Positions 2,195-64,000 of a stretch of 64,000 nucleotides of DNA are shown piece after piece. Below the pieces are notes generated by a model. The model was given only the letters and a program-made list of their open reading frames with translations, ran no database searches and had not been told where the DNA came from. The position numbers and the translations under genes are program-made. Numbering within the stretch: position 1 is the stretch's first letter; every line of letters begins with the position of its first letter. The stretch is from Planctomycetia bacterium (GTDB lineage Bacteria > Planctomycetota > Planctomycetia > Pirellulales > Thermoguttaceae): positions 44,215 to 108,214 of the forward strand of contig JAUNBK010000002.1 of assembly GCA_030527105.1 (NCBI GenBank), in the 5' to 3' direction.

Positions 2195-3622
2195 CTATTT
2201 TGAAGCGCTCTCGATCTGGCGCACTTCATACATCCGGGCGAGAGGCTGCGCGGCAGCGCGGACTGCGGTGGTTTGATGTGCAACTTTTTTCTCCCATTCA
2301 GCGTGGCTCGACCAAGTGTCAACGTAGTTCGGAATTTTCGTTTCGAAATATCCCGTTTTATTGGGGAGCGCCTCATAAAATGCGCGTACGCTCTCCAAAT
2401 CGTCTGGGTCAATGTGCCGCAATCTCAAAAACCAGCGTACTGCCGCCAAGTTGCGCAATTGTCGTTCGTCTACCGCCCGCGCGTTCGAAAGCGCCAATAC
2501 GCGCTGCGCCTGTTGGTACTGCGGCGTTTTCTCATTGAACGCAAGATCGATGCCCTCGTCAAACTGCTCGGAAGAATACTCGCCAACCGAAATTCCATCA
2601 ATTTTGAGCGCGTATTGCCCCGGTGGGAGGTGTCGAATACGCAAAATCTCTTGGTTCAAATCTTTCGCGAGCGGGACAAACTCCAACACGGCGCGCCCTC
2701 CCGACTCGATTGGCCAAGGGAGTGCGTTGGCGCAAAGGCAGAAGGAAAGGGCGCCATTCTCGTGCCGCAACTCAGAAACTTGCGCGTTCTCGACACTCGC
2801 AATGGTGGCGTCGTCTGCCGATATTTCGACACGCGAGACGAGACTGGGAGCGTTTTGCGCCCGGAGAAAAAGCCACGCCATCACGTAGTGCCCCGTTGCG
2901 CCCGGATGAACGCGGTCTGGTCCAATGAGCGTAAAATGCGGATTCGTTGCTTGTTTCGCGAGGTTGAGCGTTGTCATCTGATCGTGAAAATCAACCACAA
3001 GCGGCACACCTTGCGCCCCTCCCGACGTCGACTCTTGCGAATTCAACGCGTCCGCCAGGTTTTTCACGATTTCGGCACATCGTCCCAAGCCGCCGTTGCA
3101 CCCCGGTTGATTATTATTTCGATCGTTCTCTCCCGTGTCGTCAAATGGAGAAGGTGTCAAGAAAATGAGGGTGGGAGCGTTTTTCTCACACAGCGCGGAG
3201 ACGAGTTGCTTCATGTTTCGTTCGTACGCGAGAAGGGCATTTTCTTGGCGTTTCGACTGTTCCGGCGAGGGATCTGCCACATAATTTCCGCGCCCGACAT
3301 CGTTCATACCGAACATGAGAACGACGTGCGAGGGATTCTTCACGAAAATGTCCTCCTCAATGCGCGTCATGGCGGCACCCGCGTTGTCACCCGCAACACC
3401 AGCGTTCACGAAGGTGATATTTTTTTCGGGGAAGCGTGTGAGGTAGTAGTCATAGATATAGTAGTGGAATCGCCCTCCATGCGTGATGCTGTCGCCGTAG
3501 AAACACACGACGTCTCCATCGCCAAAGGTCTCCGCCCGAGCGAACGCGGCGAACGAGCACACGAGAACGACAAACCAAAAGAAGCGCGAAATCCGACTGC
3601 GAAATTGGGAGTATTTTTTCAT
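2195..3622 (-). CDS. Secreted SGNH/GDSL-family hydrolase
   Basis: 475-aa ORF with an N-terminal signal-like segment (FFWFVVLVCSFAAFARA), a GDSITHGG block I motif and a GMNDVG block. Upstream RBS-like AAGGAAA. Confidence 0.75.
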   Translation of the reverse strand: MKKYSQFRSRISRFFWFVVLVCSFAAFARAETFGDGDVVCFYGDSITHGGRFHYYIYDYYLTRFPEKNITFVNAGVAGDNAGAAMTRIEEDIFVKNPSHVVLMFGMNDVGRGNYVADPSPEQSKRQENALLAYERNMKQLVSALCEKNAPTLIFLTPSPFDDTGENDRNNNQPGCNGGLGRCAEIVKNLADALNSQESTSGGAQGVPLVVDFHDQMTTLNLAKQATNPHFTLIGPDRVHPGATGHYVMAWLFLRAQNAPSLVSRVEISADDATIASVENAQVSELRHENGALSFCLCANALPWPIESGGRAVLEFVPLAKDLNQEILRIRHLPPGQYALKIDGISVGEYSSEQFDEGIDLAFNEKTPQYQQAQRVLALSNARAVDERQLRNLAAVRWFLRLRHIDPDDLESVRAFYEALPNKTGYFETKIPNYVDTWSSHAEWEKKVAHQTTAVRAAAQPLARMYEVRQIESASK

Positions 3623-3814
3623 AAAATTTCCTTCGGTGGGATAAAATGGGGGTCAAAATCGCGCCCGGCTCCACATGGCGTTCATGTCGTGGAGGGGGCA
3701 CGAGGATTGGAAACAAAAATCGAACAGCCTCGAACGAACCCATTGAATCAGGAACCATCACGGCTCAATCCTGCATTATACCCCATGTGACGTATTACGC
3801 AAGCCCTCCCTAGG

Positions 3815-3923
3815 GCTGTGTCAAAAAAACAGGATTAGCCAACGTAGTGAGCGATCTATAGGTTCTTTGAAGGAGAGTTTGAGAGGAAACAAATTTTCAA
3901 AAATGTATCCTCTCAAAGGTTGG
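3815..3923 (-). repeat. Family-B repeat, left inverted arm flanking the WYL gene
   Basis: The reverse complement aligns with 5433-5556 at roughly 80% identity over about 100 bp (CCAACCT.T.AGAGGA...TTTTTGAAAATT...CTCAAACTCTCCTTCAAA.AAC.T.TAG...GCTCACT.CGTT.GCTA). It contains an internal hairpin GAGAGGA...TCCTCTC. Confidence 0.75.
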
Positions 3924-3952
3924 CGAATCGCGAGTCAGACCGATTGAGTTTG

Positions 3953-4060
3953 TATACTCATCGTCGTTTAAAATACCCGTTTTACGCGAGGTTTTGCGAG
4001 CCGTGGTGCGTAGCTCCAACGACGGGCGGAACGGGAAATTTCAACGCGAAGTATCATAAA
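3953..4060 (-). repeat. Family-A palindromic intergenic element
   Basis: TATACTCATCGTCGTTTAAAATACCCGTTTTACGCGAGGTTTTGCGAGCCGTGGTGCGTAGCTCCAACGACGGGCGGAACGGGAAATTTCAACGCGAAGTATCATAAA. Confidence 0.9.
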
Positions 4061-4094
4061 ACTGACACAACACCAGATGTCACTCACGCTCTCG

Positions 4095-5171
4095 TCAGTC
4101 TGGATTCTCGAACGTGGAATTTTGATTTTCGCCAATCCCATAAATCTTGGCGAGATTCCGAACTCGTCGTTTCATTTCGTCGCGGAGCGATTGCGGTTGA
4201 ATCACTTCGACCTCGTCGGCGTATCCAAAGACCCACCAGAGGATTTCTTTGATACCCGAGACCGTAACGCGATAGGCGAGGGTGCCGTTTGAATAAAAGT
4301 GTGCCTGTTCTGTTTCGTGCCATTGGACGCTTTTAATATTTTTAGCAACTTTCTTTGAAAACAACAACTCGACCTCAACATCTTCCTCGTCGCGAATCAT
4401 ATTCCACGCGTTTCCGCGATATTTCTCGTACGACCAGCCGAATGGGGGAACGAAAGTCGCATTCGGGTTGATTTTTAGATTTTGAATACGTTCCAGGTGA
4501 AAAGTGCGCACTTCATTATGAAACGTTGAATAACCTGTGACATACCATGCGTGACGATTAAAGTGAATATGATATGGACATATCGTTGTGCATATAGATG
4601 TATTTTCAAAAACACTGCCGTATTCGACACTAATTTTTATGCAATTCTGCCTCGCCCAGAGGATTTGAAAGAAAAAATCTCGACTGTGCGCTGGCGCTGT
4701 GGGAGCAATGTGGATATGCACGTTTCGAACCTGCTCCTCTGCGGCCTTTTGAATCTCATCTGGAAGTCCACTGGAAAATTTCTCGATCAACGGCACTGAT
4801 GCATTCAAATATGGTATGGATCCCGGCTTGCCAGAGCCGACCTGACCTAAAAGCAAGAGGGAGACTCCATCTTCAACCGCCACTTCAATAGAGTGCAAAA
4901 AAGGAAAGGAGGTTTTTGGAAAATGATACTCTCCTTTATGATTCTTGACCAATGGCTCACGCAAAAAATGCTGAATTTCCTCGATATCTCGATAGATTGT
5001 TCTCTCCTGCTTCTCGGGCGCCACGAGTTGATGAAGCTCCGAGGGCGTGTACCACCCCTGTTGAAGGAGACTGATGACCGTGAGAACCCGCCCCACGTGG
5101 GAGAGCGGTTCGTCCTGCATCTCCCTCATGTGCGAGTCTTTGTTTCCCCGATTATTCGCAAATTCCGACAT
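4095..5171 (-). CDS. WYL-domain transcriptional regulator (HTH + WYL + C-terminal extension; YafY/BrxR/CapW-like architecture)
   Basis: 358-aa ORF. N-terminal wHTH-like segment (LLQQGWYTPSELHQLV...RTIYRDIEEIQ). Central WYL-type block (CPYHIHFNRHAWYVTGYSTFHNEVRTFHLERIQNL). C-terminal block ending ADEVEVIQPQSLRDEM. Visibly more AT-rich than the flanking core genes. Confidence 0.75.
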   Translation of the reverse strand: MSEFANNRGNKDSHMREMQDEPLSHVGRVLTVISLLQQGWYTPSELHQLVAPEKQERTIYRDIEEIQHFLREPLVKNHKGEYHFPKTSFPFLHSIEVAVEDGVSLLLLGQVGSGKPGSIPYLNASVPLIEKFSSGLPDEIQKAAEEQVRNVHIHIAPTAPAHSRDFFFQILWARQNCIKISVEYGSVFENTSICTTICPYHIHFNRHAWYVTGYSTFHNEVRTFHLERIQNLKINPNATFVPPFGWSYEKYRGNAWNMIRDEEDVEVELLFSKKVAKNIKSVQWHETEQAHFYSNGTLAYRVTVSGIKEILWWVFGYADEVEVIQPQSLRDEMKRRVRNLAKIYGIGENQNSTFENPD

Positions 5172-5230
5172 GAATTCCGTTCCCCAACTTTGTTATGGTT
5201 ATCGCACCAAAAACCGTCTTTTATAACACT

Positions 5231-5326
5231 TTTCCCCTAAATTTCGGTTTTCACGAAGTTTCGGAAACCATCGCGCGTCGCTCCAACGGCAGGCAAAACC
5301 GAAAAATTCAATGCGAAACATCATAA
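5231..5326 (-). repeat. Family-A element, diverged copy
   Basis: ...AAATTTCGGTTTTCACGAAG...GCGTCGCTCCAACGGCAGGCAAAACCGAAAAATTCAATGCGAAACATCATAAG. Confidence 0.6.
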
Positions 5327-5432
5327 GACGCTTTCTTTTTACGCTCTCCGCCTACGCCCCCCACGAGCGTGGCGCACTATGATACAATTTTCACCTTAAA
5401 AAGTCAAGACCAAAAATCAAAAAGTTCGACCT

Positions 5433-5556
5433 TCCAACCTCTCAAGAGGAAATTTTTTGAAAATTATTTCTTCTCAAACTCTCCTTCAAAAAACTTGTAG
5501 CCTGCTCACTCCGTTTGCTAGGGAACCGCTGAACAATTCCCTGATTTTGTCAGGAA
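5433..5556 (+). repeat. Family-B repeat, right inverted arm flanking the WYL gene
   Basis: See 3815-3923. The outer tip CCCTGATTTTGTCAGGAAGG resembles the terminal IR of the adjacent IS5 remnant. Confidence 0.75.
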
Positions 5557-5678
5557 GGATTCCGCGAAAGTTGTTTTTTCAAAACAAATCTATATGTTGT
5601 AGTTTTGTGCAAAATCGTTGAAAAATGGGCGTATTATCCCTCGCAAAATCGAGTTTTTTGACCTGCGCGAACGCACAT

Positions 5679-5788
5679 TATACCTGTTCTCCTTTAAAAC
5701 TCCCGTTTTACGCGACGTTTTGCGAGCCGTGGTGCGCAAGCTCCAACGGCGGACGGAAACGAAAATTTCAACGCGAAGTATTATAAAA
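5679..5788 (-). repeat. Family-A element nested in the IS5 remnant
   Basis: Near-consensus copy that abuts the transposase C-terminal remnant. Confidence 0.9.
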
Positions 5789-6128
5789 GGTTCGCAAGAC
5801 CAAAAAGAACGTTGAATCGATTCATGTTTTTGACCAGACCTCGGTACACCACCTTGCTGCGAATCGACGATTTGCGACGCTCAATATCGCGTTCTCAGTC
5901 GATTCCGGTGTACGTTTTGTTCGATTTTCGACAGGCGTTCATCTTCCCGACCGAATCATGCACGTTCGCCGCCGTACCCGCGATGGTGTGAACGTACGGC
6001 TGAATCATCTGCACCCACGCAGCCCACGGAATAATTTCTTCCATTTTCCGCAGAAATTCTTCACGCCTCGTGCCCCGTTTTCTGAGGGAATATTCGTAGT
6101 CCGTGAAAGTCATCTGTTCGTTCGTCAT
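5789..6128 (-). pseudogene. IS5-family (DUF772/DDE) transposase remnant, internally deleted
   Basis: The N-terminus MTFTDYEYSLRKRGTRREEFLRKMEEIIPWAAWVQMIQPY is typical of IS5-family transposases. It jumps directly to a DDE fragment (HTIAGTAANVHDS), then a stop at 5895-5897. The same frame continues with a C-terminal remnant, IRSKVVYRGLVKNMNRFNVLFGLAN. Total length is far too short for an intact transposase. Confidence 0.7.
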
Positions 6129-6328
6129 GGTTCTGCCGTCTCCGCGTTACGTTAAATCGGCATCATCTCCATACTACCCCAGATTATAGCACTTCTTAAA
6201 TTTCTGACAAGACCTGGGATTATACTCGTTCTCCTTTTAAATTCCCGTTTTATGCGACGCTTTGCGAGCCGTGGTGCGTAGCTCCAACGGCGGACGGAAC
6301 AGAAATTTTAGCGCGAAGTATTATAAAG
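6123..6328. repeat. Direct repeat copy 1 flanking the R-M cassette (IS5 5' end + family-A copy)
   Basis: 6123-6195 matches 8399-8473 at about 90% (CGTCATG.TTCT.CCG.CTC.GCGTTACGTTAAATC.GCATCATCTCCATACTACCCCAG.ATTATAGCACTT). In both cases a family-A copy follows in the same orientation. Confidence 0.8.
6221..6328 (-). repeat. Family-A element
   Basis: Near-consensus copy located between the IS5 tip and the methyltransferase gene stop. Confidence 0.9.
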
Positions 6329-6350
6329 CACGAGGAGCATAAAAACAGGA

Positions 6351-7298
6351 TCACTTGAGAGCCGGGGCAAAATCCAGTGCAAGCTGAGCCGTACTCAAGC
6401 GATTTCTAGCGACTGCGACAAAGCTCTCGTTTATTTCGATACCAATATAGTGGCGACGGAGGTTTTTGGCAGCCAAACATGTCGTGCCTGACCCTGCGAA
6501 CGGGTCGATGATGATCGCGTCTTCTTGAGTTACAAGTGAGACGAGACATTCCATAAGCCGAAGCGGTTTCTGCGTTTCGTGCAGACCATGATCGGTTTTA
6601 TCGCAAGGTACGGACAAAATATTCGAGTTTGCGCCGCTCCCTGTAGAGGAACGTCGCGTACAATATGTTGAGAGCGCGGTCTCGTTCCACGCGCCGACGC
6701 CGTATTCGGCGACGTTGTCCGCGAGAGTTCCACCAATTTTGTAGGGTTTTTGAAACCACAATATTGGTTCAAAGAGGGGTCGCAAATTAGCAACCCGCCA
6801 GCCTTCCCACAGTTCGGCTTGTTCGTCGTCTCCACGACGTTTGTATATTTCTGAAATTCGTTGTGCGCGATGTGGGGCGGTTGTTTTTTCCCAAGCCAGC
6901 ATGTCTTTAAAGGTGAATCCAGAGTCTTCGAGAGCGACGATACACCTATGGGCAAAACGTCGTCCAGCAAAAATCAAACAAGACGCTCCAGGCTTCAACA
7001 CCCTGAGCCACTCTTCTGCCCAAGAGGAGCACCATTTTTGGTATTCAAGAGGAATTCTTTTGTCGGCACTACTCCACCCATTCAGAGGTTTTCCACGCCG
7101 TTTGAATATAGCTCCCGCGTTATTTTGCGCGGTCGACGTGCCGCCCAATGCCGAATTGGTGTTATTGTGCAGCACATCCCACTCATCGTAACCTATTCCA
7201 TAGGGGATGTCTGAAATAATCGCGTGCGAGTACTCACTTGGAAATGTTTTCATCAATTCCACCGAGTTTCCGCAAACAATCGTATCTAAGTCAATCAC
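6351..7298 (-). CDS. Type II DNA methyltransferase, N4/N6 beta-class (motif IV before motif I); M.HindIII-like by context
   Basis: 315 aa. SDIPYG (DPPY-type motif IV) lies near the N-terminus and IIDPFAGSGTT (FxGxG motif I) near the C-terminus. Its start overlaps the end of the upstream endonuclease pseudogene by 8 nt. Confidence 0.85.
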   Translation of the reverse strand: MIDLDTIVCGNSVELMKTFPSEYSHAIISDIPYGIGYDEWDVLHNNTNSALGGTSTAQNNAGAIFKRRGKPLNGWSSADKRIPLEYQKWCSSWAEEWLRVLKPGASCLIFAGRRFAHRCIVALEDSGFTFKDMLAWEKTTAPHRAQRISEIYKRRGDDEQAELWEGWRVANLRPLFEPILWFQKPYKIGGTLADNVAEYGVGAWNETALSTYCTRRSSTGSGANSNILSVPCDKTDHGLHETQKPLRLMECLVSLVTQEDAIIIDPFAGSGTTCLAAKNLRRHYIGIEINESFVAVARNRLSTAQLALDFAPALK

Positions 7299-8160
7299 GC
7301 TGGATTCCCCTTATATAAGCGTCAATTTGTTGGATTCTCTCATCAATCTTCCTGCTTTTTATCAGTTCAGAGATAGCCTGCTCGCGAGTGTAAGTGGTTA
7401 TTCTTTTGCGTTCATTTTCCCAATACGCTTTTTCAACCTCTCCACGGCGTGCTATATCTTTAACGCATAAGGCTAAAACTCGATCAAAATCCAACAGCGT
7501 CAGCCCGACGGAGGACGCCAAGAAGGCATCGAAATTGCGAATGAAACACTTTTTCTTCTCGGCAACAACCACTTTATGCGAAAGCGTTTCTCCAAAACCC
7601 CACAGCGAAGAAAGATTGATGTGCTCGTTTTCTTTTATGCCCCGAGAAAGTAGGGACAGCAAATGCTCCCAACTCAACAAACAGACGTTATTATCGACTG
7701 CTTGCGCGTATACCTGACTCTGCGAGCGTGGATATTGAAAGTATGGTGAGCACAATACGGCATAATCGTGGTCTTCGCGCCAAGCAGCCAAAGCTCAAAC
7801 CTTAAAATCTTTCTGATTCTTGGCGGTACGACTCATACGAAATGTCTTTGCGTCTGCAACAAGCGTATAGCCAAAGATGTGGGATTGCGCGATTACGTCT
7901 GCGGCATCTCCTCTTTCGGATAGCACCGTTGATTTTAGTCCTAACTCACGAAAAGCGCGCGACAGAACGGCGTCAGACGCTTTAGCAAATAGTTTTTCCC
8001 CGGTTGAATCGTGCGCAATACTTTCTGGGATCGTTCCAATTTGCAAAAGCAATTCTAAAAAATTGTCTGTTGTGGACACAAAAGCATTGATTTTTTCGAC
8101 GTTATCGAAAAACCTCTCGTGCTCTCCTTTCGTGATCAAAGTTAAAAGTTTATTAAACAT
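7291..8160 (-). pseudogene. HindIII-family type II restriction endonuclease interrupted by one in-frame TGA (7795-7797)
   Basis: ORFs 7795..8223 and 7291..7791 are in the same frame and read ...LVADAKTFRMSRTAKNQKDFKV*ALAAWREDHDYAVLCSPYFQYP...LLSWEHLL.... As I recall it, R.HindIII reads LVADAKSFRLSRTAKNQKDFKVKALSEWREDKDYAVLTAPFFQYP...LFSWEHLA. The likely start is MFNKLLTLI at 8160, preceded by AAGGAG. Confidence 0.8.
7795..7797 (-). other. In-frame TGA nonsense codon inside the HindIII-like endonuclease
   Basis: The minus strand reads AAG GTT TGA GCT TTG GCT GCT TGG (K V * A L A A W). The homologous HindIII position is Lys, by my recollection of the sequence. Confidence 0.85.
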
Positions 8161-8398
8161 TAGACTCCTTTTTTCGTGATCCGTTGTCTCGCGGATAGGA
8201 TTTGCGCGCATGAACAGACCCAAGTAGTAACATTATACAGCAACAATGTTGATTTGTCAAGGCTTGTCCATAAAAAACGGAACAATCAGGTGCCTTCAAA
8301 TTTTGGTGGCTAAAAGGCAAAAAGAGCATATTCATCTACCGGAGCCGAGAACGGTGCGTAGCGCAGTTCTGGATGAAGCGTCAAACGATCCTTCCGTC

Positions 8399-56596: not shown

Positions 56597-57493
56597 GTGT
56601 TCGACTATGGAATTTATCTGCTGGTTCGGATTATTATTTCGATTTTGCAAGCGCTTTCTCTCGAGCAGGCGCGGGGGTTTGCGTTGTTTATGGCGTGGCT
56701 TTGCGCCGACGTGCTTCATGTTCGTGCGAAACTCGTACGGGAGAATATTGCGCACGCGTTTCCGACGCTTTCTCCTGAACAAGTCCACGAGGTGGAACGC
56801 GGAATGTGGCGGCATCTCTTTTTTATGCTAATGGAAGCCGCTTTTGCCGAGCGAAAAATCCACCTGTCGAATTGGAAGCAATACGTGTCGCTTGAGAACG
56901 AAGCCGCCCCACTTCAGGCGATGTACGAAGGGAGACCCTTAATTTATGCCCTCGGGCACCTCGGCAACTTTGAATTCGCGGGCTATATCCTCGGACTCAT
57001 CGGCATCCCGCCTTATACCGTGGCGCGGACGCTCGACAATCCGCACTTGAATCAATATCTTTTGAATTTTCGCAATTCGACGGGGCAGTACATCATTCCC
57101 AAGGACGCTGCCGCGCCGATGTTGGAGGAGGCGATGGAGCGAGGGCATTCTGCCGCCATTTTGATGGATCAGCACGCGGGACCAAAAGGTTTTTGGGTCA
57201 CGTATTTTGGGAGAGAAGCCTCCACACACAAGGTGATTCCGCTTCTTGCGCGGTCGTTTCATGCGTCCGTTGCGGTTTCGGCGCCTTTTCGAAAAGATGA
57301 AAAACTGTTTCATTTTCACATCGTCACGGCGAATTTTTTCACGCCCGAAGCGCTTATGGAGGGGAATTCACCCAAGGAGGCTGCGCAAATCCTCAACACC
57401 ACGTTGGAGAATCTCGTTCGTCGTGAGCCTCATCAATATTGGTGGCTCCACAATCGTTGGAAGCCAAGGAAAAAGAGTGCCACGAAGTCATGA
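56597..57493 (+). CDS. LpxL/HtrB-family lipid A (Kdo2-lipid IVA) late acyltransferase-like protein
   Basis: 298 aa (GTG start) with an N-terminal TM helix and a GHLGNFE (HX4D/E) motif. Confidence 0.7.
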   Translation: MFDYGIYLLVRIIISILQALSLEQARGFALFMAWLCADVLHVRAKLVRENIAHAFPTLSPEQVHEVERGMWRHLFFMLMEAAFAERKIHLSNWKQYVSLENEAAPLQAMYEGRPLIYALGHLGNFEFAGYILGLIGIPPYTVARTLDNPHLNQYLLNFRNSTGQYIIPKDAAAPMLEEAMERGHSAAILMDQHAGPKGFWVTYFGREASTHKVIPLLARSFHASVAVSAPFRKDEKLFHFHIVTANFFTPEALMEGNSPKEAAQILNTTLENLVRREPHQYWWLHNRWKPRKKSATKS

Positions 57494-58632
57494 ATGTTTT
57501 TGACGATATCCAGTGGAGCCATGGTGGTGCGAGGCGACTACAAACGCAGGGTGTCAAATATGCGGGATCGAAACGCCCGCTTCTGCCGCAGATTCTCGAC
57601 TTGGTTCGAGAAACGGGCGCGAGGTCGGTGTGGGACGCGTTCTCTGGGGCGACGCACGTGGCGCAGGCGCTGGCGCAGCAGGGGCAAAGAGTGATTGCAA
57701 GCGACATTTCGTTCCTCTCGCAAGTTTTCGCGACGTGCTACTTGAAATCGAAGCGTCCGATCGATGAAATTCGGCAGATGATCGAGGAGTTGAATGCGCT
57801 CCCGCCCGAGGATGGGTGGTTTTCGGAGCACTACGGTGGCGAGGTGCGGGAAAATTCGCCGCTTTCGCTCCAAAAAGATGGACTCAAAAAACCGTTCCAA
57901 AAGAAAAATACGCAGAAACTCGACGCCATTCGACGCACCATTGATGGGTGGGAGTTGGACGAGGAGACGCGCTGCGTGTTGCTCGTGAGTTTGATCCTGG
58001 CGCTCAACGAGGTGGACAACACGTTGGGGCATTTCACGTCGTATTTGCGCGAATGGTCGCCACGATCGTACAGGACGCTGGAGCTTCGCGTCCCGCAGCT
58101 TTTTCCCCACGGCGGCGGACACGAAGTGTATCGCGCGGACGTCTTCGATCTTGCGGAGGGGATTCGCGCAGATTTTGCCTATTTTGACCCTCCGTATGGG
58201 TCGAACAACGAGAAAATGCCCTCCTCACGCGTGCGTTATGCGGCATACTACCATTTTTGGACGACCGTGATTTTGAACGACCGACCTGCGCTTTTTGGCA
58301 AGGCTGCGCGACGTATGGACTCGTCCGACCTGCTTGCCCACTCCCCATTTGAGGAGTTTCGGAAGAATGCATCGGGACGATTCGTCGCGGTCGAGGCGAT
58401 CCAGAGGCTGTTGAAAATCACGCCGGTCGAGTGGATCCTTCTGTCGTATAGTTCTGGGGGGCGCGCCACGGCGGAGGAGTTACTCGACGTCATTCACGAA
58501 GCGGGAAAACTCGTCAAAATGCTCAAAATCGACTATCGCCAAAACGTGATGGCCAGAATGACGTGGACAAGCCAATGGCTTCGCGAGCTAGAAACCAAAA
58601 ATCAGGAGTTTCTATTTCTCATCCAAAAATAG
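57490..58632 (+). CDS. D12-class N6-adenine DNA methyltransferase, with no obvious cognate endonuclease
   Basis: ATG at 57490 overlaps the upstream TGA (ATGA). YAGSKRPLLPQI (D12 N-terminal motif), DAFSGATHV (motif I) and AYFDPPYG (motif IV). Confidence 0.75.
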   Translation: MNVFDDIQWSHGGARRLQTQGVKYAGSKRPLLPQILDLVRETGARSVWDAFSGATHVAQALAQQGQRVIASDISFLSQVFATCYLKSKRPIDEIRQMIEELNALPPEDGWFSEHYGGEVRENSPLSLQKDGLKKPFQKKNTQKLDAIRRTIDGWELDEETRCVLLVSLILALNEVDNTLGHFTSYLREWSPRSYRTLELRVPQLFPHGGGHEVYRADVFDLAEGIRADFAYFDPPYGSNNEKMPSSRVRYAAYYHFWTTVILNDRPALFGKAARRMDSSDLLAHSPFEEFRKNASGRFVAVEAIQRLLKITPVEWILLSYSSGGRATAEELLDVIHEAGKLVKMLKIDYRQNVMARMTWTSQWLRELETKNQEFLFLIQK

Positions 58633-58979: not shown

Positions 58980-59207
58980 ATTGTTGTGGCATAAAAGCGG
59001 AAAATAATCTGCGTACGCCCTCCGAAGCCCACCCCGCCCTGCCCTTGCCAGAGAGACGGGGGGGGTGGACTCATTGTGCTTTATATCGTCCTCCCTTATT
59101 TTTGCGCGCCGAGAAATAACGTTTCTAATGGTGGGACAATGGGAAGACTTTGCCGGAAAGAATTGGATAAATTTGGAATTTCCCATCAAAAACGAGGGAT
59201 GTCCCCC

Positions 59208-59235: not shown

Positions 59236-59250
59236 TCCGCCTAACGTTTT

Positions 59251-59323
59251 GAGATCGTAGCTCAGTCGGTAGAGCATCGCACTTTTAATGCGAGGGTCAT
59301 GGGTTCGAGCCCCATCGATCTCA
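59251..59323 (+). tRNA. tRNA-Lys (TTT)
   Basis: GAGATCGTAGCTCAGTCGGTAGAGCATCGCACTTTTAATGCGAGGGTCATGGGTTCGAGCCCCATCGATCTCA. Anticodon loop CTTTTAA; canonical D and T arms. Confidence 0.95.
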
Positions 59324-59409
59324 TTTTTCTTTGCTTCATCTGCCATTTGTTGTATTTCGTTCTTGTTTCTTGTGTGTTTTTGAGGTTTTTTTCTAAAAAG
59401 GAATTTTTG

Positions 59410-59442
59410 ACACTTGACAAGTGTGATTTGTTATGCTAGAAT
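59410..59442 (+). promoter_or_regulatory. Near-consensus sigma70 promoter overlapped by a perfect 7-1-7 palindrome (candidate operator)
   Basis: TTGACA (59414-59419), a 17-nt spacer, then TAGAAT (59437-59442). ACACTTG-A-CAAGTGT (59410-59424) is a perfect inverted repeat covering the -35 element. Confidence 0.55.
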
Positions 59443-59506
59443 GAAGTTGTGCTTAATTTCTGAGGAAATTTTGTTTTTTCACGATGGATAACCGAGGAGC
59501 GTTGTA

Positions 59507-60774
59507 ATGAAGAATAGTATAATTGTGTTTTTGGGAGCGGCAACCCTGTTTTTGGGATGCATGTTAGCATATTTGATGCTTTGTAATGACGATCGTGCGC
59601 CCCTACAATCCCCCCCCCTCCCGCAAGCATAACACTTGGCAATTCCGACACAGCCAGCACAGCCGACGCGGTCGAAGAAATTTCTAAACCTCCCGTAAGT
59701 GTCGAGGATGCCGAGCGCGTGCGGTCGCGCACCCTGAGGGGAGAATTCTGCGCAACGGGTCGCGGAGAAGACGCAAAATGGGGCGTCGCTCGAACGTTGA
59801 ATTTCCAATATTCCGTCTATCTCATTGCGGAATCGAAAATTCTCAGCAAAAAAACTCTACCAAGCGGATACATTAAGATCGAGGAGAAAAGGACGTTTAA
59901 AAACGTCTCGGATTCTCTTTGTGTTTCGGATGTCGATTTTCAATTGAATTTGGAAACACTCCCTGTCGACAAATTTTCCTGCGCGATTGATATCCTGGCA
60001 ACGGCGTATGCTGGAATCTCTGGCGATCTGGTGACTGCGGGAACAATCGTCGCTGAAAAAAATTATTGGACTCGATCGTTGAAAGCGGTCGACGGAATCT
60101 CCCTCCGCGCACTTTTGGGGCTGGGCGGAATTGAAGTTCCACAATCTGTTGAGGAGTATCTCAATAAGTTTGGAGAATCCGATGTCGAACGCGCGCTGGG
60201 TGGCGTGAGGAGCATTTCTGGCAAATCGTATATCATCACGTGGTACCAAAAAGAGGCGGGACTCCCTATGGGCGTCACGTTCACGAACGAGGATGGGTCT
60301 GCCGTCGTCGAGGAAGAAGAGTTGTTGGTGCTGAGGAGGGTGAACACGTTCATTGATTCCCACATTGTACCCAATATGGATTGCGAGTCGGGCGACTCGT
60401 GGAAGGTTTCCGTTGGGAATATCCAAGAGGTTTTGGATCCTTATGTGGAAGGAATCTACACGGGAGAACTTGAATTCAAGCGTACAAGCGACGACCAAAA
60501 TGGCGCGTGGAACATTGAACTTCAACCTGGCAGACTTCAGGTGCAAAATGACGAAAATGCTGTGACGGGGCGTCTGACGATGAAAAAAGGCTACGCAAAA
60601 GTCTCGCCGAAAAATCTGGCTCTGGAGGAATTATTCGTCGAAGGAACTGCAAAACTTGAGAAACTCACGCCTCACCACTGGCTTTTCACGGCGAGAATTT
60701 TAGGGGATTGCGCATTCCAAGGGCGCATTCTCTCTGCGGAGATGGAGGAGAGCAGCTCGGAAATCAAAGAATAA
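59507..60774 (+). pseudogene. Membrane-anchored/secreted protein of unknown function, split by a frameshift at a C9 tract
   Basis: The ATG at 59507 (RBS GAGGAG) encodes MKNSIIVFLGAATLFLGCMLAYLMLCNDDRAPLQSPP... and stops at 59630. The frame of ORF 59719..60774 is open back to 59590. One extra C in the tract 59610-59618 would join the two frames into about 422 aa. Confidence 0.6.
59610..59618 (+). repeat. Homopolymeric C9 tract at the frame junction
   Basis: The sequence reads ...CAATCCCCCCCCCTCCCGC..., with nine consecutive C residues. Confidence 0.9.
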
Positions 60775-60806: not shown

Positions 60807-63296
60807 ATGGAACTGGTTTGTCCATTTTGTCAGCACGGTTTGAGCGAGGAAAATAGGCACTGTCAAAGTTGCGGTGGCGCCTTTTCGCCCGATGACTGGC
60901 CGGAGGAAGCAATTTCCTCGAAGGGGTTGGCTCCAACCCTCTCGCTAAAATTCGAAGGAGACGTCTGGCAGGCGGCGAGGGATGATTTCACCATCGGGCG
61001 CAATGTGGGAATCGGCGGGATGCAGATCAAACACCCCTCCGTCTCGAGTGAGCATGTGCGCATTTATCGAAGGGGAAACGCTTGGATCGCAGAGCGCCTC
61101 AAGGGTGTGCTCCTGTGGAACGGAGAGGAGAGAGAGTCGATCGATTTGGCGTCCGGCGGAATCCTTTCTCTTGGCGCGTGCGCCCTCGGGGTCGAAATTC
61201 TTTACAAGAGGGTTTCACCCCCGACGGATGTGGAGGGTGTGCTCAAGTCCGAGACTTTCCTCGATTGGAGAAACAAAAATCAAATCCGAATCGGAAGCGA
61301 CGGCGCAAGGTGCAATATCGTGATTTCGGATATTGATCCGATTCACGCGATTATTTATCGTCACGCAAGGACGGGCGACTGGTGGATTGTCGATTGTGCG
61401 TCGCGATCGGGCACGCAGCTCAACAAACAACAGATTCAAAACTCGCGTCTCTATCCCGGGGACGTGGTGCGCGTCGCGTCGGTGCCGATCGTGGTTTCCG
61501 AGGGAGGGTTGAGCATTGGCAACACATCTGGCAACGGCTTTTTGATGTCCGTCGATCGGCTGAGCGCGTCGATAGGGAAAAACCAGATTCTGAACGACGT
61601 GAGTTTTTTGATCAAACCTGGCGAATTTCTGGGCGTCCTTGGTCCGAGCGGCTGTGGAAAGAGCAGCTTGATCCAAAGGCTTGTAGGATTAGGTCGCGTG
61701 TCGGGGGGGACGATTTTGGTCGACCGATTAGAAGTGCAATCCGCCCGAACGAATTTCCTTCGCAAGACGGCGTATCTTCCGCAGCAGACGGCACTACACC
61801 CCGCCCTCACTCTCGAGCAGGAGTGCGACAGTTTTTGTCGAATCCACTGCGCGTCATTCAACGAGGGCAAGAGAAAAATCCTCCCCTCCTTGAGACTCGT
61901 TGGGCTGGAGAGCGAGGGCAAAAAAAGAATCAGAAGTTTGAGCGGTGGGCAAAAACGTCGCGCAGGAATCGCGCTCGAGCTGCTTCGTTCTCCGAGGCTT
62001 TTGCTCCTCGACGAGCCAACCTCTGGGCTGGACCCCGCGACGGAAGCGGACGTTATGAATTATCTCAGGCGCATTGCGGATCAGGGGAAAAGTGTCGTGT
62101 GTTCGACGCACATGATGGAAAATGTCGATATGTTCGACAAGATTCTGCTTCTTTCTCGTGGCTGCGCGGTGTTTTTTGGCAAGCCGAGCGACGTGTTGCG
62201 GTATTTTGGGGCAAAATCCCTCCCAGAAGTGTTTCGGATGCTCGCGGAGGGAAGTGCAGACGATCAGACGCAAAGGGCAAAGGAACTGTCACAAAAGCTG
62301 CGCCATTCGCCCTATTTTCCCCAGATTCATTCGACTCACGACGCGAGTCTGAGTGCGCTGGACGCGAAGAAGGCGCCTTCCGTGCCGATTTCGCAAGAGA
62401 TTTTGGGCTATCTGCATCGATACGTTCAGGAGACATTCAGCTTTGCGCACTCTCCGACGCCGTGGCGAAGTTTTTGGCAGTCCCCGATTTTCGTGTGGAT
62501 GATTCTCCAACCTTTTTTGATTTCGCAAGCGATTAAACTCTCTTGCGCAACGAAATTTTTTGGGTTTGGAGAGGATACGAAAGCGCTCTTTTTCTTCGCG
62601 CTTCTTTCGATGTTTTGGCTCGGCATGAATCATTCCATTCGCGAGTTGGTTGCGGAACGGGTTCCTCATCGATGCTTGGAACGGCTCCGTCAAGTTTCGT
62701 TTTCGGGTTACATATGGAGCAAACTTGCGGTGTCGTTTGTCCTTTGTGCAGTGCAAACGGCACTGTTTTCGATTTTTTTCTTTGCTCTGCCGTATTATCA
62801 CGTCCACGGGCTTTCGGAACTGGACGCGCCGAACGCGATCATTTGGACGTGGGGACTTTCGGCAACGCTCTTTTTTGCGTGTCTCATGGGTTCTTGGATT
62901 GCGTTGGCGCTCTCGGCATTTTCGACCAACGAGAATGCCGCAGTAGGCGCTCTTCCTCTCGTTCTTATCCCCGTGCTCCTTTTTAGCTCGCCTGTTATTA
63001 ATCATGAGGAGACGTTTGATAAATATTTCAACGCAGAAACGGGTGGCAAATACTCCAAACCGGCGATTTATTTGGAGTGGCTCTCCCCCTGCCACCAACC
63101 TTTAGTACTCATGTCGGCGCTCAATGATCGGCAGCACGCGCTTCTGGAGTCGCAAGAGAGAATTGACAACAACCACAAAAAAGTGCGCCGCAGCCTCGCT
63201 TCGATGTGTATCAACACCTACTGTTGGCTGCTTTTTTCCTTTATTGCTTTGATTTATTTTCAATATCAACGTGAACAATCTTGGGAGGGACGCTAA
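60807..63296 (+). CDS. Zinc-ribbon + tandem FHA + ABC transporter (NBD fused to an ABC-2 type permease; ABCG-like, Rv1747-like architecture)
   Basis: Start at MELVCPFCQHGLSEENRHCQSCGG. Two FHA-like segments (FTIGRN...SSEHVRIYRRGNAWI; IRIGSDG...HAIIYRHARTGDWWIVD...GTQLN). Walker A GPSGCGKSS, signature LSGGQKRR, Walker B LLLLDEPTSGLD, then about 6 TM helices. Confidence 0.8.
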   Translation: MELVCPFCQHGLSEENRHCQSCGGAFSPDDWPEEAISSKGLAPTLSLKFEGDVWQAARDDFTIGRNVGIGGMQIKHPSVSSEHVRIYRRGNAWIAERLKGVLLWNGEERESIDLASGGILSLGACALGVEILYKRVSPPTDVEGVLKSETFLDWRNKNQIRIGSDGARCNIVISDIDPIHAIIYRHARTGDWWIVDCASRSGTQLNKQQIQNSRLYPGDVVRVASVPIVVSEGGLSIGNTSGNGFLMSVDRLSASIGKNQILNDVSFLIKPGEFLGVLGPSGCGKSSLIQRLVGLGRVSGGTILVDRLEVQSARTNFLRKTAYLPQQTALHPALTLEQECDSFCRIHCASFNEGKRKILPSLRLVGLESEGKKRIRSLSGGQKRRAGIALELLRSPRLLLLDEPTSGLDPATEADVMNYLRRIADQGKSVVCSTHMMENVDMFDKILLLSRGCAVFFGKPSDVLRYFGAKSLPEVFRMLAEGSADDQTQRAKELSQKLRHSPYFPQIHSTHDASLSALDAKKAPSVPISQEILGYLHRYVQETFSFAHSPTPWRSFWQSPIFVWMILQPFLISQAIKLSCATKFFGFGEDTKALFFFALLSMFWLGMNHSIRELVAERVPHRCLERLRQVSFSGYIWSKLAVSFVLCAVQTALFSIFFFALPYYHVHGLSELDAPNAIIWTWGLSATLFFACLMGSWIALALSAFSTNENAAVGALPLVLIPVLLFSSPVINHEETFDKYFNAETGGKYSKPAIYLEWLSPCHQPLVLMSALNDRQHALLESQERIDNNHKKVRRSLASMCINTYCWLLFSFIALIYFQYQREQSWEGR

Positions 63297-63298
63297 AA

Positions 63299-64000
63299 AT
63301 GCTGTTTCAAGAAAACCTATGCCTGACGCGGAAGATTGCGCAGAACCAACCGGGACGCTCCACTTGGGAAGCAGAGCACGATGGCAAGAAATGTGTCGTT
63401 AAAATGATAGAGACGGAGAATCCGCACCAGAAACAAAAACTGGTCGAGATTTTGAGTCGTCAAGTTCAGTATCACGAAAAGATTGCGCTGGAGGATCGAG
63501 CGCGAATTGTGCTTTTTAACGAGATGATCGAGTCGGAATCCTCCCTCGCGTTCGTTCGCAACTGGGTCGAGGGGGAGTCGCTTGAAGACCACCTCTCGCC
63601 GGACCCCATGCCGTGGGAGAAAGCCGCCACGTTGGTGGGGAAAATCGCGGACATTGTGGAGTTGGCGCACACGCAATACGCTATTTTCCACGGAGATTTG
63701 AAGCCCGCAAATATCATCATTTCTCAAGAGGAGATGAGCATTATTGATTGGGACTCCATGCGAATCGCGTACGAAATGGACGATATGGCGACCAAAACCC
63801 TCTCGTTGGAAGCGCTTGGGACGCCCTACTACATGGCCCCGGAGCAGTGTCGCGGACGCAACATCAACGCGCAAAGCGACGTTTATGCGCTCGGTGCCAT
63901 TTTCTATCGGCTTCTCACGGGAGTTTTGCCCTTTGGAGACACGCCCGTCCTGCAGCTCTGGACGCTCAAGCAGAGCGAGGAACTACCGCCCATTTTGACT
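63299..64000 (+). CDS. Ser/Thr protein kinase (Hanks type), N-terminal 234 aa; it runs off the right edge
   Basis: Not in the ORF track because there is no in-window stop. ATG at 63299 lies 8 nt after GGGAGGG. It reads KCVVKM (catalytic Lys region), HGDLKPANIII (catalytic loop, non-RD), IIDWDS (DFG position) and GTPYYMAPEQ (activation segment). The frame is open to position 64000. Confidence 0.85.
   Translation, partial: MLFQENLCLTRKIAQNQPGRSTWEAEHDGKKCVVKMIETENPHQKQKLVEILSRQVQYHEKIALEDRARIVLFNEMIESESSLAFVRNWVEGESLEDHLSPDPMPWEKAATLVGKIADIVELAHTQYAIFHGDLKPANIIISQEEMSIIDWDSMRIAYEMDDMATKTLSLEALGTPYYMAPEQCRGRNINAQSDVYALGAIFYRLLTGVLPFGDTPVLQLWTLKQSEELPPILT

Follow-up and report, generated by a model that had tools for sequence, protein, structure and literature searches.

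Why is the gene at the head of an operon encoding an FHA-ABC exporter and a Ser/Thr kinase divided between two reading frames that meet in a run of nine C residues? The question was raised by a preliminary description of a 64,000-nucleotide stretch of planctomycete DNA (here called the window), which offered two answers, a phase-variation switch or a frameshift error. The source genome is a metagenome-assembled genome (MAG) of 210 contigs and 4.1 Mb, 94% complete. Planctomycetes of animal and human gut communities have been little studied and are for the most part uncultured, and for Planctomycetes our literature search turned up no report of SSR phase variation. We analyzed the gene and its frames, its homologues and operon, the length of the tract in assemblies and relatives, and the G/C tracts of the whole genome. 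The reading that we favor, with a probability of roughly 0.5, is that the C9 run is a genuine slipped-strand phase-variation tract that is OFF as assembled.

Two reading frames meet in a run of nine C residues

The C run ends at a T (59619), and the two frames on either side of it are listed with the other features in Table 1. The upstream frame is terminated by a TAA codon at 59630-59632; its 41-aa product carries a 21-residue hydrophobic core (approximately residues 5 to 25), with a maximum mean Kyte-Doolittle hydropathy of 2.36 in a 19-residue window. The downstream frame is closed on its 5' side by a TGA codon (59587-59589), and the earliest ATG, GTG, or TTG within it is GTG 59719, at which the 351-aa open reading frame (ORF) had been called. 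The preliminary description had placed the ATG, its ribosome-binding site (RBS), the stop codon, the open downstream frame, and the meeting of the frames in the C run just as we find them in the sequence. It was slightly wrong in assigning no RBS to the GTG, since GAGGA is present at 59705-59709, 9 bases upstream, though as part of conserved coding sequence (VEDAERV).

Table 1. Positions of the split gene, of its operon, and of G/C tracts in other genes. Coordinates without a prefix are window positions; L numbers denote fetched loci.
Feature	Position	Strand	Remarks
tRNA-Lys	59250-59324		Bounds the unit on the upstream side
Sigma-70-like promoter, TTGACA-17-TAGAAT with extended TG	59414..59442	+	11/12 matches
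Shine-Dalgarno GAGGAG	59494..59499	+	7 bases 5' of ATG 59507; read from sequence
Upstream frame, 41 codons	59507..59632	+	N-terminal membrane anchor and start of Pro-rich linker
Downstream frame, 394 open codons	59590..60774	+	Remaining linker and conserved extracytoplasmic domain from ~59680
C9 homopolymer	59610..59618	+	Junction of the two frames; putative slipped-strand tract
Zinc-ribbon/FHA/ABC ATPase fused to ABC-2 membrane domain, 829 aa	60807..63296	+	Pfam
Ser/Thr protein kinase gene	63281..64000	+	Pfam Pkinase, 2.1e-29
Leader tract G14	L022:6070-6083		
Leader tract C13	L023:5131-5143	-	
Leader tract C13	L024:3890-3902	-	
Leader tract C12	L025:6045-6056	-	
Leader tract G10	L026:6023-6032		
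Leader tracts, G11 each	L027:564-574 and 3608-3618		
hsdS (Methylase_S) G12 tracts	L029:6003-6014, 7314-7325 (G000:C27:6902-6913, 8213-8224)		Both in frame

Frame shift aside, no further in-frame stop is present in the 394 downstream or the 41 upstream codons. Lengths of C10, C7, or C13 at this site put the two frames in register. As assembled, C9 gives 41 aa, while virtual translation of a C10 allele gives a 422-aa protein reading ...APLQSPPPPASITLGNSD... and that of a C7 allele gives 421 aa; both virtual products are collinear with all homologues, which bears out the earlier proposal that one C more or two fewer would create an anchored protein of about 422 aa. The frames overlap by 43 bases, and from the 54 G/C runs of at least 9 bases in the 4.1-Mb genome, only ~7e-4 such runs would be expected there. 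Because chance placement within the overlap is this improbable, we regard the C tract as the cause of the frame break. Nine bases also exceed the length at which G/C homopolymers are considered hypermutable (approximately 7 to 8 bases or more), and at this position in the coding region, changes of ±1 would toggle between full-length and truncated products.

The two frames belong to one gene

A search of 5.8 billion proteins returned 21 homologues of 400 to 484 aa, originating from MAGs labelled Planctomycetia, Thermoguttaceae, and Victivallis and from metagenome proteins. All 21 combine a hydrophobic anchor, a variable and often Pro-rich linker, and the conserved domain in a single frame; a length of 351 aa is limited to the window's own gene call. 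The 41-aa frame aligns with the N termini of all homologues and is identical to the nearest of them, P0004, at 14 of the first 23 residues. Orthologues devoid of the upstream signal-peptide frame, which the preliminary description had named, together with a uniformly C9 tract, as refuting evidence, did not turn up: the frame is present in every one. Within the genus, the gene was detected in 2 of 14 genomes, the window's own included. The orthologue in the other, G001 (L002 1399-2637; 58% identity), is unbroken and lacks a homopolymer.

In an AlphaFold (AF2) model of the 59590-60774 translation, the pLDDT was 77 overall and ~90 from residue 31 onward, and a strand and a helix at residues 31 to 43 were confidently modelled (pLDDT of ~90). 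Residue R43 (stop-to-stop numbering) is invariant in alignment A1 and lies one codon before GTG 59719. Since R43 and the modelled strand and helix precede this GTG, the product of a GTG start would be truncated and anchorless, and because the downstream frame has no earlier start, the R43-containing stretch can be made only from ATG 59507 with a change of frame. We conclude that positions 59507 to 60774 are almost certainly one ancestral gene split at the C tract. On this point, the preliminary description is fully supported by the 21 contiguous homologues and by the virtual C10 and C7 products. Annotation of this locus should reject the GTG-started 351-aa ORF and record one frameshifted or phase-variable gene.

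The product is not a classical adhesin or antigen. Its conserved domain matched no Pfam family in the 59590-60774 translation, and a Foldseek search with the AlphaFold model gave weak matches (TM of ~0.3) to CD36/LIMP-2 ectodomains and to the lipid-binding beta structures of lipovitellin, MTP, and ApoB. From these model-based matches, one might guess that the domain handles hydrophobic cargo.

The split gene heads a transporter/kinase operon

The split gene opens its transcription unit, because a tRNA-Lys gene lies just upstream. A sigma-70-like promoter is located ~65 bases before the ATG and probably drives the operon; the region contained 8 promoter-like sites, compared with 1.7 expected from shuffles. 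On the downstream side, a gap of 32 bases separates the split gene from the 829-aa FHA-ABC gene (Pfam ABC_tran, 2.4e-27; FHA, 2.8e-16; ABC2_membrane), the end of which is overlapped by the kinase gene; the latter extends beyond the window. The order split gene/FHA-ABC/kinase is kept in loci L002, L003, and L004.

Several other features of these loci were observed. In L003, which is the locus of a relative carrying a C11 tract (see below), the FHA-ABC gene (2469-3731) is called at just 420 aa and lacks the membrane domain, and the kinase gene (3706-6430) overlaps it; the short call reflects either another architecture or an additional break in the frame. In the window, a gene for a D12-class N6-adenine DNA methyltransferase is located at 57439-58632, ~600 bases 5' of the tRNA-Lys gene and the operon. 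Between the methyltransferase region and the tRNA-Lys gene is an apparently noncoding G8 run (59058-59065), identical in the Logan contig (L004 1045-1052).

The length of the tract in two assemblies and in relatives

A Logan contig of SRR24915838, the product of another assembler, matches the window without a difference over 5,761 bases, the C9 run included, and products of 41 and 351 aa were called on it as well. SRR24915838 is possibly the MAG's own source, which makes this contig a second assembly and not necessarily a second sample or independent data. No variant contig and no second copy of the locus were found in the MAG. In exact look-ups of the 351-aa, 41-aa, and 829-aa proteins, SRR24915838 was the sole run carrying the locus, and a gapped pattern of the tract flanks had no match in JGI metagenome contigs. 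A similar comparison of the MAG with Logan contigs at a C13 tract ended with a Logan contig that stops 257 bases short, and two neighbor look-ups intended for other tracts gave no match. We infer that C9 is the true dominant allele.

The preliminary description had suggested that tract length be compared among related genomes, and this comparison gave C11 in the nearest homologue and no tract in distant ones. The nearest homologue, P0004 (65% identity), belongs to another species and is encoded on a Logan contig of SRR22588136. At the aligned site (L003 1259-1269), it reads ACT ACC CCC CCC CCC GAT, in frame and right after the same CAA codon, and the linker around the tract has diverged from that of the window. 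No run was present at the aligned site in the other fetched loci (L002, L006-L011, L040-L043); one distant homologue encodes nine consecutive prolines through mixed CCG and CCT codons. Judged from the aligned sequences, an uninterrupted C run at this site characterizes the two closest species and differs in length between them. The difference in length between relatives, C9 versus C11, rests on one relative of another species, for which a look-up of further samples gave that one contig alone.

G/C tracts are in excess in the genome and favor surface and restriction-modification genes

Long G/C runs are more frequent in the source genome than composition predicts. There are 30 runs of at least 10 bases, the longest being G14, while an iid model predicts ~9; short G/C runs fall below the iid expectation. 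A/T runs drop steeply beyond 8 bases, and those of at least 9 are rare. Within gene bodies, pure C9 encoding PPP was found 2 times (5.1 expected from codon usage) and pure G9 encoding GGG was found 6 times (8.4 expected); CCC makes up 32% of the proline codons.

We initially scored "OFF-like" genes by ORF length, a heuristic that was abandoned at a background of 12 to 15% in control runs, and used a test of position within the ORF instead. Among ORFs of at least 300 aa, 13 of 27 runs of at least 9 bases lay within the first 70 codons, compared with 123 of 781 runs of 6 to 7 bases (Fisher P = 1.2e-4); with as-assembled frames alone, the counts were 9 of 19 and 107 of 704 (P = 1.2e-3). The tract carriers include PEP-CTERM, PATR, LamG, and LRR proteins and two adjacent type I hsdS genes, with a mixture of frame states, so the genome-wide excess of tracts is biased toward genes for the cell surface, restriction-modification, and interaction with the niche. 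Of the genes broken in midgene by a tract, one is a likely PEP-CTERM gene, its match falling just below the Pfam cutoff, and the others matched no Pfam family. Among the tracts checked, no frame-breaking tract was found in a recognizable housekeeping gene; the single tract checked in a gene of housekeeping type, a G11 run in the gene of an AMP-binding enzyme, leaves the frame intact.

In the PEP-CTERM/PATR/LamG family of surface proteins, the poly-G tract is inside the leader, which reads ...(R)VKI(A/R)-GGGG(G)-IGRK followed by the hydrophobic core. The leaders share a DNA motif, GTTAARATA-NN-G10-14, which was present in 5 of 14 genus genomes (the window's own included) and never in the reversed control. 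As assembled, leader tracts of G14, G13, and G13 are out of frame, and those of G10, G11, G11, and G9 are in frame. A motif of the form TGTTAAAATAC-G9-10 is also present at ~1501-1520 of L021 (minus strand; G000:C122:31520-31539), where no leader ORF is evident, and likewise without an evident leader ORF in loci L014, L016, and L019 of relatives. The element TGnTAAAAT preceding a G tract resembles an extended -10 element, and by this resemblance some tracts may act on the start of transcription and not on translation. In the adjacent hsdS genes, the G12 tracts are in midgene, between the two target-recognition domains of each gene; the pair is possibly a phase-variable methylation specificity system (phasevarion).

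Runs of at least 11 G/C bases are unevenly distributed within the genus: 91 in G008, 26 in G001, 19 in G013, and 16 each in the source genome (G000) and G009, but 0 to 3 in most other members, of similar genome size. The uneven counts reflect either lineage-specific gain of tracts or differences in assembly. Genes for MutS (two copies) and MutL are present in the source genome, and we therefore rejected loss of mismatch repair as a source of tract instability.

Alternative explanations of the frame break

If the tract had been miscounted in sequencing or assembly, its real length would be C10 or another in-frame length, and the gene would be intact, possibly still mutable. In favor of a miscount, indel errors classically arise at homopolymers, the assembly is a MAG of 210 contigs, and the gene shows no other defect. 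On the other hand, C9 was obtained by two assemblers, the agreement of the two assemblies at every base over 5.7 kb speaks for accurate reads, a run of nine bases is usually resolved correctly in Illumina-type consensus, and housekeeping genes among those checked had no tract-linked break; we consider a miscount unlikely. Alternatively, the tract could be a mutational hot spot that suffered a one-off, effectively irreversible frameshift, leaving a young pseudogene without selected switching. This explanation would accommodate an out-of-frame gene seen in the window's genome only, a same-genus orthologue without any tract, and the apparent dispensability of a gene carried by 2 of 14 genus genomes. 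It fits less well with more than 420 codons free of any other disabling lesion, with an intact promoter, RBS, and ATG, with retention of the tract at another length in the nearest homologue, and with a genome-wide tract pattern that suits contingency-type genes; moreover, C9 is mechanistically still reversible, so a one-off frameshift would differ from a switch mainly in whether selection maintains the tract. We regard it as rather unlikely, if the foremost of the alternatives. A decayed pseudogene was excluded, as the gene has a single frame break and retains its promoter, RBS, ATG, and 394 open codons.

Two further explanations take the C9 sequence as it stands. A full-length protein could be made from C9 by recoding, that is, by -1 ribosomal slippage or by RNA polymerase slippage that adds one C. 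The sequence C_CCC_CCC at 59611-59617 (zero-frame CCC CCC) fits the X_XXY_YYZ pattern in the upstream frame, a -1 slip there yields exactly the C10 product, and consecutive proline codons are known sites of ribosome stalling. Programmed recoding is nevertheless very improbable, because no stimulatory structure is present downstream (the fold of 59600-59720 has a z score of -0.77, and folds as good or better were obtained for 44 of 200 shuffles) and the two-frame layout occurs in 0 of 21 homologues, the tract-bearing relative being in frame; at most, -1 slippage may make the OFF state slightly leaky. Finally, the locus could hold two separate genes, one for a 41-aa membrane micropeptide and the other for a soluble 351-aa protein starting at GTG 59719. 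The gene caller made both calls on the Logan contig, and GAGGA is present 9 bases 5' of the GTG. Every homologue, however, is a single fused protein, a GTG start would remove the invariant R43 together with confidently modelled structure, and the GAGGA falls within the conserved VEDAERV codons, where both the GTG and a Shine-Dalgarno sequence are missing from the nearest homologue. An arrangement of two genes is, in our view, scarcely credible.

The slipped-strand switch has its own difficulties. The tract is shared with one relative only, and the same-genus orthologue has none. With the given share of CCC among proline codons, an unbroken C run might arise in a Pro-rich linker by chance alone, and instability would not be boosted by loss of mismatch repair in a genome that encodes MutS and MutL. 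The locus of this species is carried by one sample, the second assembly being perhaps from the same data. The protein also differs from the adhesins and antigens classically subject to switching, with no Pfam match and weak fold matches. Indirect support for the phase-variation answer of the preliminary description comes from the C11 tract at the homologous site of the nearest homologue, from the surplus of long G/C tracts near the 5' ends of surface-protein genes and in hsdS genes, and from the C9 reading of a second assembler. Weighing these points against the evidence above, we place the slipped-strand switch at the probability given at the outset and infer that the tract switches in the source population.

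Comparison with known contingency loci

The putative switch, proposed here from sequence alone, resembles that of pilC in Neisseria gonorrhoeae and N. meningitidis, in which a G/C tract in the 5' export/anchor coding segment toggles expression on and off by its length, and the planctomycete, like Neisseria, has mismatch repair genes. Unlike the poly-G tract of pilC, the planctomycete tract encodes prolines, with the C residues on the coding strand, just past an apparently uncleaved anchor, and its product heads a transporter/kinase operon, whereas PilC is a pilus adhesin.

Campylobacter and Helicobacter are devoid of MutS/MutL-type mismatch repair, in contrast to the planctomycete, which also differs in phylum (Planctomycetota) and in carrying tracts in PEP-CTERM families. 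As in the poly-G/C contingency loci of Campylobacter jejuni and Helicobacter (PMC8355987, PMC2823697), G/C tracts of ~8 to 14 bases are in excess in genes for surface structures and restriction-modification. In-frame and out-of-frame tracts are likewise mixed within one assembly.

In the pmp genes of Chlamydia, homopolymer tracts in envelope-protein genes give rise to frame-shifted and intact versions among strains. The planctomycete belongs to the same PVC superphylum; it differs in the protein family concerned and in being free-living and gut associated, not an obligate intracellular pathogen. In the PmpG group of these polymorphic membrane proteins, the tracts are poly-G (10.1101/506121). 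With respect to gene context, the locus is similar to that of the FHA-ABC exporter Rv1747 and PknF of Mycobacterium tuberculosis, where an ABC transporter with FHA domains adjoins a Ser/Thr kinase. The likeness is limited to the genes downstream of the split gene, and Rv1747/PknF is not known to be accompanied by a gene for an anchored partner that a homopolymer switches. Two features set the planctomycete locus apart: its tract is poly-C (proline) and follows an apparently uncleaved anchor, and the gene is the first of a transporter/kinase operon.

A model for switching and its implications

In the slipped-strand model that we favor, the gene would encode a type II anchored (N-in) extracytoplasmic protein of ~422 aa with a hypermutable poly-C tract in the linker just past the membrane anchor, C9 being one C short. 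In the OFF state (C9), translation from ATG 59507 would halt at 41 residues, and the conserved domain would be absent. Slipped-strand mispairing at replication could add one C or remove two, restoring the frame. In the resulting ON state (C10, C7, or C13), the ~350-residue domain would face the periplasm or the surface, where it would probably work with the adjacent FHA-ABC exporter and Ser/Thr kinase. The tract would thus be a stochastic, reversible switch of translation, like the homopolymer contingency loci of other bacteria. As a speculation, the ~1.1 kb of mRNA left untranslated in the OFF state might lower expression of the transporter and the kinase by polarity.

A broader and more tentative proposal, which we put somewhat short of an even chance, is a poly-G/C contingency system that would span the genome in this lineage and comprise the shared ...VKI-GGGG-IGRK leaders of PEP-CTERM proteins, the hsdS pair, and the C tract switching the extracytoplasmic partner of the FHA-ABC exporter and kinase and perhaps, by polarity, the entire operon. 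If this proposal is correct, what varies in phase would be a signalling-transport unit and not an adhesin. For MAG pipelines, frame breaks at G/C tracts in this lineage should be treated as biological. If the switching is real, slippage at homopolymers would serve bet-hedging in Planctomycetota as it does in other phyla, and the head gene of a transporter/kinase signalling operon would be controllable in this way, beyond the classical surface antigens.
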